A stretch of DNA of 64,000 bases, from positions 22,841 to 86,840 of the forward strand of contig JBAZUA010000003.1 of the NCBI GenBank assembly GCA_041661645.1, read 5' to 3'. This stretch comes from Minisyncoccota bacterium. GTDB lineage: Bacteria > Patescibacteriota > Minisyncoccia > Phycocordibacterales > UBA6065. This document shows positions 15,317 to 34,107 of this stretch, piece after piece. Under the pieces are notes generated by a model that saw only the letters and a program-made list of their open reading frames with translations, made no database searches and was not told where the DNA came from. The position numbers and the translations under genes were made by a program. The first letter of the stretch is position 1. Each line of letters starts with the position of its first letter.

Positions 15317-15389
15317 CCGCCCATAGCTCAGTCGGTAGAGCAGCTCCCTTTTAAGGAGAGGGTCCCAGGTTCGATTCCTGGTGGGCGGA
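15317..15389 (+). tRNA. tRNA-Lys (anticodon TTT)
   Basis: Cloverleaf: acceptor CCGCCCA/TGGGCGG, D arm GCTC..GAGC, anticodon loop CTTTTAA, T arm CCAGG TTCGATT CCTGG; no encoded CCA. Confidence 0.85.
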
Positions 15390-15465
15390 CACTCATGTGA
15401 TAGGTTCGGAGTCCGAGAAGGCTTCTTTTGGCTTGTGGAATAAGCTCGTGTATTATTGATGCACG

Positions 15466-24058: not shown

Positions 24059-24153
24059 TACCGTTAGCCTGAAGCTGATAAGCTCCCTGGTCCCCATTTC
24101 ATGGGTACAAGGGATGTCACAGTCGATGGTCCGCGCGAGGTTCGGAATCTATC

Positions 24154-24732
24154 ATGAGCAATTCTGAAAATGCTACGTCCGCCCAGCTCCTGCAAGTCAT
24201 CGCCAAGTTCGCCCAAACCATTCCCGTCGATGCAGATCGACGGGAGGTGCAGAAGGCGATCGAGGATAATGACGATCCCTTCTGGGTCTTTCTGAAAGAG
24301 CGTTTCGCCAAGAAGGCTGTCGAGGTCGCGAAGGCGGCCAGAGGCGCCCTTGCCGAGATGGTCGCTCTCGGTCGCTACGACTGGGTGAGCGAGCACATCA
24401 ATGAGAAGAACTTTCCTCCGGAAAGTCTCGTTCTCGGCTCGGACCCCAAGGTCTTCCACTTCAATCGGTATATCTCATCGGAAGATGCGATTGCCGAGAT
24501 GGAGAAGAAGGGATATCGTCCAGCGACTCTCGGTGACTTGCTCGATTACGGGGCCAAGAACCCCGAGGAACAGCGCGAGTATCCGATTGTCGCCCTTGGG
24601 TCTGTCGCCGTCCTCGACGATGGTCGCCGCGTGGCTTGCCTCGGCGGGCACGGTTCGGCTCGCCGCCTCAGCCTGCACGGGTTCGATGGCGACTGGGGTG
24701 GCCACTGCCGCTTCCTGGCGGTTCGCAAATAA
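24154..24732 (+). CDS. DGR target protein (variable protein) with C-terminal variable repeat
   Basis: 192-aa ORF; last ~42 codons form VR matching the TR with adenine-specific differences. Confidence 0.8.
   Translation: MSNSENATSAQLLQVIAKFAQTIPVDADRREVQKAIEDNDDPFWVFLKERFAKKAVEVAKAARGALAEMVALGRYDWVSEHINEKNFPPESLVLGSDPKVFHFNRYISSEDAIAEMEKKGYRPATLGDLLDYGAKNPEEQREYPIVALGSVAVLDDGRRVACLGGHGSARRLSLHGFDGDWGGHCRFLAVRK
24599..24726 (+). repeat. DGR variable repeat (VR)
   Basis: 128 bp; 105/128 identical to TR; all 23 mismatches fall at TR adenines. Confidence 0.85.
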
Positions 24733-25074
24733 GTTCTTTGTCTCCTCATGCCTTTGGATCTAGTCCTTTGGCCCTTGGAAACTTTGGACCTCGACCGCGC
24801 TTTCTTCAAGATTGCGCGGTTTTCTTTTGCCCGATACCCTCATATAATATTCTTCGACAGATGAAAAATCCTCGGTCACGGCTTTGGGTAATCTGTCCGC
24901 AACGCTCGGGAGGGGATTTTTCGCGGCTACGGTTTCGAAAAGAGTCTTCCGTGCCTTCGTTCAAAAATAAAGAACAGTTGGTGTGAGACACTATGCGACG
25001 CACAAGGTCGCTTATACCAAAATACAGCCCCGAGAGCACTCGAGGGGCGGTGGGGCAGACGGTATCTCACACAA

Positions 25075-25202
25075 GGTCTGTCGCCGTCATCGACGATGAT
25101 CGCAACGTGGCTTACCTCAACAGGAACGATTCGGATCGCAACCTCAACCTGAACAGGTTCGATAACGACTGGAATGACAACTACCGCTTCCTGGCGGTTC
25201 GC
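25075..25202 (+). repeat. DGR template repeat (TR)
   Basis: 128 bp non-coding template with 31 adenines (23 substituted in VR); identical 3' end (ccgcttcctggcggttcgc) = IMH-like region; followed by GC hairpin ctcccgagacccagtctcgggag. Confidence 0.85.
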
Positions 25203-25642
25203 TACTGCTCCTTTTTCTCCCGAGACCCAGTCTCGGGAGTTTTGTTTGCCAGCTGTCGCCGCCATCCGCCGAGCATTCTCCCGACCTCGAAGAGCTGTTC
25301 GGAAATGGCGGCGTATTTCTTGCCATCCAAGGCCCGGTTGTCCCATGAAAGCTCAACCAAGAGTTTGAGAAGGTCCACTCGCGAGATGCATCTGTCGAGC
25401 AATACTATCTTTTCAGCTATTTGTGAATAGCTTGCGAGGAAGCAATATTCAATCGCTACAAGAAAGACATCATCTATCTTTGTCCCGAGGGTGAATCGAC
25501 TGGCTTTCGGGAAGTGCGCGAGACAATTCTGCCATGTCCCATAGGACTCCTTTAGCTTAAGGATAACGGGGATGAGCTTTGGTTGCGAAAAACTGCGGGG
25601 GGGGGTAACTTGAGGGGTGTGTCCAGGATTCAATTCTGCCAT
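25202..25642 (-). CDS. avd: Avd-like accessory variability determinant (four-helix-bundle / 23S rRNA IVS protein family)
   Basis: HFPK...IDDVFLVAIEY...KKYAAISEQLFEVGRMLGGW pattern typical of TIGR02436/Avd; encoded on opposite strand between TR and RT; true start likely internal. Confidence 0.55.
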   Translation of the reverse strand: MAELNPGHTPQVTPPRSFSQPKLIPVILKLKESYGTWQNCLAHFPKASRFTLGTKIDDVFLVAIEYCFLASYSQIAEKIVLLDRCISRVDLLKLLVELSWDNRALDGKKYAAISEQLFEVGRMLGGWRRQLANKTPETGSREKKEQ

Positions 25643-26608
25643 GCCTACAAAGATATCATTTCCGTGGATAATTTGCTGTGCGCGTGGAGGGAGTTCAGAA
25701 AGGGGAAGCGTGCCAAGAGGGATGTTCAGGAATTTGAGATAAACCTAACCAATAATATCTTATCCCTATATGAGGAATTAAGGGAAAAACGTTATGAGCA
25801 TGGCGGATATCACGCCTTCAATATCTCTGACCCGAAACCTCGCAGCATTCACAAGGCCCTGGTACGAGACAGGCTTCTCCATCATGCCCTGTATCGCAAG
25901 CTCTACCCATTTTTCGACAGGACGTTCGTCTCAGATTCGTTCTCGTGCAGGAATAATAAGGGCACGCACAGGGCAATCGAGCGGTTTACGGCTTTTGGGC
26001 GCAAGGTATCGAAAAACAACACTCGCACGATCTTCGTCTTGAAATGCGACGTGAGGAAGTTCTTTGCTTCCATAGATCATGATGTTTTGTTCGGGATACT
26101 TTCGATCTATATAAAGGATGAGGATATCCTCTGGTTGTTGAAAAAGGTCGTGTCGAGTTTCAATTCGGGAAGGGAAGGGGTCGGCCTGCCGCTGGGAAAC
26201 CTCACTTCCCAGCTTCTCGTGAACATATACATGAACGAGTTTGACCAGTTCGTGAAGCATAAGATTGGGGCGAAATACTATGTCCGTTATGCGGATGATT
26301 TCGTGACGCTTTCCGACGATAAAGAATATCTTGAGAGGGTGTTGTCGCGAATGGGGGAGTTTCTCAAATCAAATCTCAGGCTCGCGCTGCATCCCGACAA
26401 GGTATATATAAAAACACTAGCGTCGGGGGTCGATTTTCTGGGTTGGGTGCACTTTCCGCATCATCGGGTGCTTCGAGGCGCCACGAGGAGAAAGATGCTG
26501 AGGAATCTGGCGAACGATCCGAAAGAGGCAGCCAGGATTTCATATTTGGGACTGCTCAAGCATGGTAATGCCAAGAGGCTTGAGTGCCATATTGGCCCGC
26601 TTGCCTAA
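25583..26608 (+). CDS. DGR reverse transcriptase
   Basis: LPLGNLTSQ (DGR-specific motif 4), YVRYADDFV (YxDD), N-terminal AWREFRKGKR region. Confidence 0.9.
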   Translation: MRKTAGGGNLRGVSRIQFCHAYKDIISVDNLLCAWREFRKGKRAKRDVQEFEINLTNNILSLYEELREKRYEHGGYHAFNISDPKPRSIHKALVRDRLLHHALYRKLYPFFDRTFVSDSFSCRNNKGTHRAIERFTAFGRKVSKNNTRTIFVLKCDVRKFFASIDHDVLFGILSIYIKDEDILWLLKKVVSSFNSGREGVGLPLGNLTSQLLVNIYMNEFDQFVKHKIGAKYYVRYADDFVTLSDDKEYLERVLSRMGEFLKSNLRLALHPDKVYIKTLASGVDFLGWVHFPHHRVLRGATRRKMLRNLANDPKEAARISYLGLLKHGNAKRLECHIGPLA

Positions 26609-26658
26609 AAAGAGGGAGTAATATATGATATAATCATATTAACTTATAGTATAAATCT

Positions 26659-26868
26659 ATGTCCACATTATCAATACCCCTCACTGCCGACCTCGAGGGC
26701 GTGGTCAACAGGCTCGTGAAAAGTGGCTATGGGGCAAACAAGGCCGATGTCGTCCGAAAAGCACTCCGAAAGCTTTCGGAAGACCAGGCTGTTGAGGCTA
26801 TTCTACGTGCCCAGGCGGAGCCGAGCCTTAAGGGTGATTTGAGGGATCTCATGAAGAAGTTCAAATGA
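26659..26868 (+). CDS. type II antitoxin, ribbon-helix-helix (ParD/CopG-like)
   Basis: 69 aa; 4-nt overlap (ATGA) with downstream toxin. Confidence 0.55.
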   Translation: MSTLSIPLTADLEGVVNRLVKSGYGANKADVVRKALRKLSEDQAVEAILRAQAEPSLKGDLRDLMKKFK

Positions 26869-27125
26869 TAGAACTTCTTTTCAAGCCCTCTTTTGTGCGA
26901 ACCGTAAACGGGCTTGAGGAAGCCTTGGTGGAAGAGGTGTTTGAAAAGATTGAATTATTCAAAGACCCCAAGAACCACGATGCTCTGAGGGTTCATAAGT
27001 TAAAGGGACGTTTTTCTGACTGCCACAGCTTTTCTGTAAATTACAGGTTTAGGATTATATTTGAGTATTCTGGAAAGAAAGAGGCGACACTTCTGTTTAT
27101 CGGTGACCATGATATATACAAGTAG
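26865..27125 (+). CDS. type II toxin, RelE/ParE family
   Basis: 86 aa; C-terminal YRFRIIFEYSGKKEATLLFIGDHDIYK typical of RelE/ParE. Confidence 0.7.
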   Translation: MIELLFKPSFVRTVNGLEEALVEEVFEKIELFKDPKNHDALRVHKLKGRFSDCHSFSVNYRFRIIFEYSGKKEATLLFIGDHDIYK

Positions 27126-34097: not shown

Positions 34098-34107
34098 CCC
34101 CCCCCCC
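34098..34107. repeat. C10 homopolymer tract in intergenic region
   Basis: ggcccccccccccaacc read directly. Confidence 0.8.

Follow-up and report, generated by a model that had tools for sequence, protein, structure and literature searches.

Antisense avd and the template RNA of a Patescibacteria diversity-generating retroelement

Described layouts and the cassette in the window

The Bordetella gene order, in which avd is co-directional with the template repeat (TR) and lies upstream of it, is canonical only for the 'core' set of diversity-generating retroelements (DGRs) from outside the candidate phyla radiation (CPR) (Wu et al., 2018; Nucleic Acids Res 46:11, PMC5758913). For the CPR set, architecture B3, written TR-(avd)-RT with parentheses denoting the reverse strand and RT the reverse transcriptase, and with avd as its sole accessory gene, was reported for 90% of the DGRs (Wu et al., 2018). 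Another account of DGRs does not mention the orientation of avd (Yan et al., 2019; PMC6642488). The DNA analysed here, hereafter the window, comprises 64,000 nucleotides (nt) from a Minisyncoccota bacterium of the Patescibacteriota (assembly GCA_041661645.1, contig JBAZUA010000003.1, positions 22,841 to 86,840, forward strand) and holds a complete DGR cassette at approximately 24150 to 26610. The B3 sequences from CPR and DPANN genomes are said to have come largely from Paul et al. 2017. The window cassette is an ordinary CPR-type DGR of B3 layout, consisting of a target gene with its variable repeat (VR), the TR, a reverse-strand avd and the RT, and its antisense avd is an arrangement that was already known. 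What comparison with its relatives adds concerns the RNA, namely a template RNA with a large structured 5' domain, which would be transcribed separately from avd and RT, and a simple-sequence tract at the junction of these two genes.

24154..24732, plus strand: DGR target gene (192 amino acids), from the list of open reading frames (ORFs), with the VR in its last 45 codons
24599..24726, plus strand: VR, a 128-nt direct repeat of the TR, 82% identical to it
25075..25202, plus strand: TR, 476 nt downstream of the VR in the count used here, with adenine-specific mismatches
25202..25642, minus strand: avd ORF (146 amino acids, ATG start), oriented towards the template RNA and away from the RT
25619..26608, plus strand: DGR reverse transcriptase, matching RVT_1 with 75 bits; the ORF opens at TTG 25583 and the likely start is GTG 25619

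The cassette is identified as a DGR by the adenine mismatches between its repeats, by an RT that adjoins the TR and by a VR that ends the target ORF. All 23 of the 23 mismatches between TR and VR fall at TR adenines on the plus strand, which makes the plus strand the template strand. The VR ends 6 nt before the target stop codon, and its last 19 nt, CCGCTTCCTGGCGGTTCGC, are GC-rich, identical in the TR and similar to an initiation of mutagenic homology element. Scans of the Pfam and NCBIfam libraries gave no match for the target protein. The motif [LIV]GxxxSQ is the signature of DGR reverse transcriptases, for which LGNLTSQ is typical, and LGNLTSQ is present in the RT sequence. The RT was assigned through RVT_1, this motif and its relatives, without a DGR-RT-specific hidden Markov model, and it is 52-72% identical to the RTs of 77 loci that also bear TR/VR pairs. 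In homologous loci, RT begins at an ATG located 6-8 codons ahead of a conserved H-(T/A)-Y-x-D-I-I-S, and the codon at the equivalent position in the window is GTG 25619; the alignment of 58 homologous loci thus makes this codon, rather than TTG 25583, the most likely start. The gap between TR and RT then measures 416 nt, as against 380 nt to TTG 25583, and the head-to-head coding overlap of avd and RT amounts to 24 nt.

The initial annotation had proposed that the minus-strand ORF at 25202-25642 encodes Avd, and this was borne out by both profile and fold. The ORF passed the gathering cut-off of Pfam bAvd (PF22296; 45.4 bits, cut-off 40) and fell short of the stricter equivalog cut-off of NCBIfam DivGenRetAVD (NF033474; E = 1.3e-16, 60.7 bits, cut-off 80). 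Because a search of PDB sequences with the Avd profile returned nothing at E <= 0.01, a fold search was needed. An AlphaFold (AF2) model built on 42 homologues has four helices (residues 24-41, 46-72, 75-101 and 107-134) with a mean predicted local distance difference test score of 82, while residues 1-20 and 136-146 are predicted to be disordered. With this model, Foldseek placed Bordetella Avd (4DWL) among the best PDB matches, at a template modelling score of 0.85 and a root-mean-square deviation of 1.9 A, together with bundles of the S23 family and the Avd chains of the DGR ribonucleoprotein 8UB7. Judged by its predicted structure, the product of 25202..25642 is a genuine Avd, a four-helix bundle matching that of Bordetella. 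The ORF coordinates and strands agree with the earlier description of avd as antisense to target, TR and RT. Its stop codon (25202-25204), said to abut the TR, in fact shares the last TR base, and the hairpin that follows the TR does lie within the avd 3' codons, at 25217-25239. As to a co-directional avd elsewhere, which would have undone that description, a search of all six frames of the window with the profile of 42 homologues found no second avd, co-directional or other.

The antisense position of avd had been taken for an unusual architecture, and a comparison of synteny among related DGRs was suggested; neither the published frequency of B3 nor that comparison upholds the claim. Avd of the window has 192 close relatives at 60-80% identity, and every relative that carries a lineage name belongs to the Patescibacteria (Kaiser-, Moran-, Adler-, Lloyd- and Taylorbacteria, Paceibacterota). 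At least 539 genomes encoded an Avd relative in a scan of one genome per species. Among the 80 best Patescibacteria loci, chosen by Avd similarity, 77 have RT directly upstream of avd on the opposite strand, with the 5' ends abutting or overlapping, and one of the three that lack this divergent pair is cut by the end of its contig. A TR with at least 80% adenine mismatches lies on the RT strand in 64 of the 80, its end no more than a few tens of bases from the avd stop codon, and VR lies 380-610 nt upstream of TR in the related loci. In addition, a Logan contig assembled independently matches the window over 6258 nt with 100% identity, so the layout of the cassette is not an assembly artefact. 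Two of the related loci, L011 (2768-5457) and L018 (51-2739), both numbered on the reverse complement that puts RT on the plus strand, were recovered from different metagenomes. Over 2690 nt their identity is 99.03%, and 23 of their 25 substitutions lie inside the VR. On sequence grounds, this pair is direct evidence of target diversification in nature by this family of DGRs.

The template RNA and the proposed transcription of the cassette

It is considered likely that the window cassette is operated as three transcription units in addition to the target gene, one each for the template RNA, avd and RT. The first would be a stand-alone plus-strand RNA of about 390 nt (~24856-25247), made from its own -10 element, TATAAT at 24843-48, and consisting in order of a 219-nt 5' domain, the TR, a 14-nt linker and a hairpin with a U-tract; its antisense overlap would be confined to the last 46 nt of avd. 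The second unit, avd, would be read from the minus strand with its start inside the first codons of RT, and the third, RT, from the plus strand with its start inside the first codons of avd, with a poly-G tract between them. Placement of the RNA modules that recruit RT and Avd 5' of the TR, and not, as Bordetella has them, in a TR-RT spacer, would leave the TR-RT interval free for avd in either orientation. Divergent promoters for avd and RT, and a separate template RNA that overlaps avd in antisense, had been anticipated in the initial annotation, and they fit the comparative evidence of promoter-like boxes, a hairpin with a U-tract and saturated synonymous sites in avd.

24843..24848, plus strand: -10-like box TATAAT, 7 nt ahead of the conserved GACAAATG; consensus in relatives TTG.TATAcT
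24856..25074, plus strand: conserved structured 5' domain of 219 nt, with covariation; 2 nt separate its last helix (P1) from the TR
24856-62/24891-97, 24870-72/24885-87, 24904-12/24946-54 and 24918-28/24931-41, plus strand: distal helices of the 5' domain
24959-62/24972-75, plus strand: helix of the 5' domain with an A-rich loop
24981-92/25061-72 (P1, 12 base pairs), 24995-99/25007-11 (P2) and 25027-31/25044-48 (P3), plus strand: further helices of the 5' domain
25217..25247, plus strand: hairpin following the TR (25217-25239) and U-tract, terminator-like, inside avd codons 134-143

Alignment of the VR-TR intergenic region across 68 loci revealed a fixed order of a C(T)TTGG array, a GC hairpin with a T-run, an extended -10 element, 7 nt, GACAAATG, approximately 219 nt of structured sequence and the TR. 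The -10-like box is the peak of information content in this alignment and keeps a constant spacing of 7 nt to the conserved 5' end of the RNA, which begins in the window with GACAAATG at 24856; TATAAT at 24843-48 is thus the putative promoter of the template RNA. The domain that follows shows strong covariation. In its TR-proximal half, pairing holds in 94.5% of the cells of alignment A3 (67 loci), compared with 70.7% in shuffled and 34-48% in slid alignments, the covariation score is 0.77 versus 0.13-0.19, and positions of P1 show up to six types of pair. In the distal, upstream half, 90.9% are paired versus 42-51% when slid, and the great excess of G·U (321) over A·C (41) indicates that the domain folds on the TR strand. 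The helices 24856-62/24891-97, 24959-62/24972-75 and P2 were read by eye from the alignments and stand outside these pair counts. An invariant UGG occurs within GUUGGU at 24977-24982, and two of the hairpin loops share GGYTACGGCU (~24874-24883 and ~24924-24933). The invariant GUUGG at 24977-24981, immediately 5' of P1, is a candidate for the priming nucleotide.

Rfam gave no RNA family over the TR flanks, either in the window at the gathering threshold or in 24700-25700 at E <= 10, the matches being tRNAs and chance hits alone. Two other candidate signals in this region were rejected. An A-rich box at 24963-24968, considered as the -10 element of the template RNA, proved in the longer alignment to be the loop of a small hairpin, and a minus-strand terminator-like site at 25045-25028, which might have ended avd transcripts on the far side of the TR, corresponds to helix P3 of the plus-strand RNA. 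In the structural survey of other DGRs (Handa et al., bioRxiv 10.1101/2023.10.23.563531), each TR was folded as a single sequence together with 40 nt of its upstream and 100 nt of its downstream flank, a span that leaves out most of the 5' domain and in which this domain would be missed.

At the other end of the TR, the hairpin at 25217-25239 has 10 base pairs, 7 of them G-C, a loop of 3 nt and the tail TTTTGTTT, and together with its U-tract it was scored as terminator-like on the plus strand by an independent scan. Essentially all of 65 distinct loci have such a hairpin, 5-19 nt after the TR, with stems that vary freely in sequence while pairing is kept, and in 59 of the 65 TTTT follows at once on the TR strand. 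The pairs sum to 534 Watson-Crick, 39 G·U as read on the TR strand and 2 A·C. The hairpin finder scores G·U and A·C alike, and the imbalance between them argues that the structure folds in TR-sense RNA and not in avd mRNA. A stem-loop just 3' of the TR was predicted in 207 of 278 Avd-containing DGRs, those of the CPR included (Handa et al., bioRxiv 10.1101/2023.10.23.563531). By analogy, the hairpin and U-tract of the window probably serve both to end the transcript and as the stem-loop to which Avd binds.

How far conserved RNA extends into avd was read from 75 avd genes aligned by codon. Over codons 21-133 the third positions are saturated, with an entropy of ~1.8-2.0 of 2.0 bits at four-fold sites, although conservation of the protein is strong; the body of avd is therefore overlapped by no conserved RNA sequence or structure. 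A Bordetella-type 3' spacer of ~140 nt, with its primer, Thumb-ring and RT-binding stem-loop, was not found in the window, where the U-tract comes after the first hairpin and the synonymous sites of avd are saturated. Synonymous sites are frozen at two places alone, the poly-C run of codons 12-15 and the 3' end, where K134 is AAA in 66 of 66 genes, T135 is ACT in 54 of 54, K143 is AAA in 30 of 30 and E142 is nearly fixed (GAG in 30 of 33). At 25202-25247 the sequence is doubly coding, and the C-terminal tail of Avd, NKTP....REK, is the reverse complement of the 3' hairpin and U-tract of the template RNA. Because hairpin and U-tract are overprinted on the gene, the conserved KTP....REK tail of Avd, which the model leaves disordered, is set by the hairpin and the U-tract beside it.

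The 5' ends of avd and RT are interleaved, each gene having a candidate promoter inside the other.

25583..25611, plus strand: predicted promoter-like arrangement for RT, with TTGCGA at 25583-88, a 17-nt spacer containing G9 and TAACTT at 25606-11, followed by 7 nt and GTG 25619
25597..25605, plus strand: G9 tract upstream of the RT start, at a distance of 13 nt; on the avd strand a C9 in codons 13-16
25650..25655, minus strand: predicted -10-like box TATCTT, 7 nt upstream of the avd ATG and antisense to RT codons K-D-I

On the opposite strand, the RT codon for His20 coincides with the avd ATG at 25642. Among 37 loci that have this ATG, a TAnnnT lies exactly 7 nt upstream in 34, and the frame from this upstream ATG is open as far as the tract in 36. 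Taken with the arrangement before RT, these spacings suggest leaderless mRNAs for both avd and RT, each with its promoter located inside the first codons of the other gene. An exact 13-nt direct repeat, CAATTCTGCCATG, was also noted here, for which about 0.1 occurrences would be expected by chance in 3.5 kb; the copy at 25631-25643 spans the avd start codon in antisense and that at 25524-25536 lies inside avd, out of frame.

Transcription in three units must be set against a single long transcript that would run from TR to RT through the antisense avd, like the TR-spacer-brt RNA of Bordetella, with the hairpin serving only to bind Avd and with avd mRNA made antisense to the long transcript. 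This alternative, which is thought unlikely, draws on the functional RNA of Bordetella, which extends 140 nt beyond the TR and has an Avd-binding stem-loop just 3' of it (Handa et al., bioRxiv 10.1101/2023.10.23.563531), on the prediction of similar stem-loops in most Avd-containing DGRs of that survey, and on the frequent leakiness of intrinsic terminators. It is opposed by the TTTT that directly follows 59 of 65 hairpins on the TR strand, by saturation of avd codons 21-133 with no conserved RNA between hairpin and RT, by the -10-like box conserved 7 nt before the RT start in a large subgroup of loci, and by the location of the large conserved RNA domain 5', not 3', of the TR. A second alternative holds that the hairpin belongs to avd, as a terminator or stabiliser of its mRNA, and is no part of the template RNA. 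Its place at the 3' end of avd would be in keeping with such a role, yet it lies within the coding region, ahead of the stop codon, the sequence that follows it on the avd strand is A-rich rather than T-rich, and the 39 pairs that are G·U on the TR strand become C·A mismatches when read from avd, with only 2 cases of the reverse, which makes this explanation very improbable. Finally, a local inversion, a misassembly or a decaying, nonfunctional cassette, suggested by nothing more than the departure from Bordetella order, is scarcely credible. It is already refuted by the recurrence of this order and these strands in 77 of 80 assemblies, independent of one another and spread over many Patescibacteria lineages, by purifying selection on Avd and by a near-identical pair of loci, L011 and L018, that differ almost solely in the VR; the identical second assembly and the restriction of VR differences to adenine positions also speak against it.

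Several observations weigh against the three-unit organisation or limit its reach. The 80 loci were picked by Avd similarity and represent one Avd clade, not all DGRs of the CPR. The U-tract hairpin could be an Avd-binding element only, with read-through into RT. In the search for a primer, the 5' leader gave a weak co-variation signal with the 3' end of the TR (z = -2.9), in inconsistent registers, and pairing of two internal single-strand segments with the TR 3' end gave no signal, so that the priming site was not located by these searches. The succession of tract, TAnnnT, 7 nt and start codon occurs in a subset of 21-24 of 58 loci alone. The equivalent of the avd ATG is in frame with the Avd core in just 10 of 37 loci, so that it is no more than a candidate for the general start of Avd. 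All of the predicted promoters, moreover, assume that those of Patescibacteria are sigma-70-like.

The simple-sequence tract and neighbouring features

The G9 tract at 25597-25605 is the sole run of seven or more G in the window. Across 584 kb of related loci, the avd/RT junction holds 59 of the 62 runs of G or C that reach 8 nt, and in 72 of 78 distinct loci the junction is marked by a poly-G of 7-13 nt (mode 9-10) or, within a single subclade, by (CT)7-17. Between L011, with G10, and L018, with G9, the sole indel in 2.7 kb is one G in the junction tract, although a homopolymer sequencing error could produce the same difference. The tract may act as a contingency switch, through frameshifting of avd or through the spacing of the RT promoter; it may instead be read as a site of RNA polymerase slippage, or in relation to a start codon that may lie downstream of the tract in many loci. 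A pattern scan of metagenomes for natural tract-length variants of the window locus gave 0 matches, and the one contig found is identical to the window.

Contingency loci are known from poly-G/C tracts in genes of Neisseria and Campylobacter and from the repeat tract in the divergent hifA/hifB promoters of Haemophilus influenzae. The junction tract resembles them in lying, with a length of 7-13 (or up to 34) nt, in the 5' coding and promoter spacer of two divergent genes and in varying in length among relatives. The literature library that was searched contains no paper tying DGRs to homopolymer switching. The 5' RNA domain, the hairpin within the avd 3' codons and the poly-G tract all appear to be undescribed in the DGR literature surveyed. 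One other G/C homopolymer of at least 7 nt occurs in the window, a C10 run at 34098-34107, located between two genes that converge on it; directly before it on the minus strand is a TTG with which a small hydrophobic ORF of ~46 amino acids could begin.

Between the VR and the template RNA, two further elements accompany the target gene.

24752..24790, plus strand: four C(T)TTGG motifs just past the target stop codon; an 8-nt periodic array in related loci
24794..24828, plus strand: GC-rich hairpin ACCGCGC / GCGCGGT with a 13-nt loop, plus a T-run, read from the sequence

The C(T)TTGG motifs average 2.25 in the 100 nt after the VR of 68 loci, compared with 0.15 in 4853 background windows, an enrichment of 15-fold, and a spacing of 8 nt is dominant among them (49 cases). 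This array, which in the window and its relatives stands at the post-VR position where Bordetella has a GC-rich hairpin, may be an element by which the target site is recognised. The hairpin at 24794-24828, followed by its T-run, recurs at the same place in the 68-locus intergenic alignment and is probably the terminator of the target gene.

Directly downstream of RT are two small plus-strand ORFs, 26659-26868 and 26865-27125, that overlap by 4 nt and have sub-threshold matches to a ribbon-helix-helix regulator (17.9 bits) and a HigB/RelE-like toxin (23.2 bits), respectively; a type II toxin-antitoxin pair beside the DGR is possible. Elsewhere in the window, ARAGORN reported a 'tRNA-Stop' with anticodon tta at 15317-15390 on the plus strand. 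A suppressor tRNA was rejected as it requires a shifted register, and a reading by hand, with a CUUUUAA anticodon loop, a standard 1-nt junction and a 5-nt variable loop, makes tRNA-Lys(UUU) the most likely identity.

Relation to the Bordetella retroelement and to CPR DGRs

In Bordetella, the functional RNA comprises the final 20 nt of avd, then the TR and then 140 nt of spacer towards brt, and the spacer supplies the stem-loop bound by Avd, the adenosine used for priming, one of the two strands of the 'cPRT Stop' duplex and elements that bind the RT (Handa et al., bioRxiv 10.1101/2023.10.23.563531). In the Bordetella structure (8UB7), a stem-loop stands 3' of the TR and a 'cPRT Stop' duplex of ~12 base pairs at its 5' edge, and both have positional counterparts in the RNA of the window; the likeness of the hairpin at 25217-25239 to the Avd-binding stem-loop is one of position alone. 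These are followed in Bordetella by a short stem-loop, a single strand containing an A and a longer stem-loop with internal loops. The window RNA presents, in the same order as Bordetella spacer positions 59-139, the 5' strand of P1, P2, the single strand GAAUACGAUACAG (GAAUAC..), P3 and the 3' strand of P1. P1 thus occupies the place of 'cPRT Stop', but both of its strands lie upstream of the TR, whereas the Bordetella duplex joins an upstream and a downstream strand, and the window RNA apparently ends after the first 3' stem-loop, unlike that of Bordetella. This correspondence of position and order suggests that the template RNA of the window is a permuted form of the Bordetella DGR RNA, with a 5' domain that would be functionally equivalent to the Bordetella spacer.

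From these parts, a more specific scheme may be put forward tentatively, as one that falls somewhat short of being favoured. The B3 DGRs of Patescibacteria would use a permuted RNA in which a 219-nt 5' domain of at least seven helices supplies the stop duplex, the RT-binding elements and perhaps the primer, and in which the 3' Avd stem-loop, overprinted on avd, doubles as a terminator, while a hypermutable poly-G or (CT)n tract gates the overlapping 5' ends of avd and RT.

The antisense avd is by itself of little weight, being the standard published layout for the CPR and here one more example of it. The family to which it belongs is very large, as at least 539 species-representative genomes encode this Avd clade, and a template RNA with a large conserved 5' domain would provide a concrete target for reconstitution of a CPR DGR in vitro. 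The dual coding at the end of avd would mean that the C-terminal tail of Avd is fixed by an RNA hairpin to which, by analogy, Avd itself probably binds. The junction tract could regulate DGR activity, and if gating by it were true, a hypermutation system would be stochastically switchable. If confirmed, the RNA organisation and the tract would carry the model of DGR reverse transcription, which is based on Bordetella, over to the lineages in which most of the diversity of DGRs is found.

Compared with the DGR of BPP-1 (mtd-avd-TR-brt; architecture B1), the window cassette differs in that its avd is antisense and located between TR and RT, whereas avd of BPP-1 is co-directional and upstream of the TR. 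The 140-nt TR-brt spacer of BPP-1 bears the primer and RT-binding RNA, while the corresponding interval of the window lacks a conserved RNA element beyond the first hairpin. The two have in common their four components, adenine-specific mutagenesis, a GC-rich 3' end that is identical in TR and VR, and the fold of Avd (4DWL). The window cassette agrees with the B3 DGRs of CPR and DPANN genomes in how TR, avd and RT are ordered and oriented, in having one target gene, which lies next to them upstream and has its VR at the C-terminal end, and in its Patescibacteria host; in gene architecture there is no difference between them, and the cassette is a plain member of that group.

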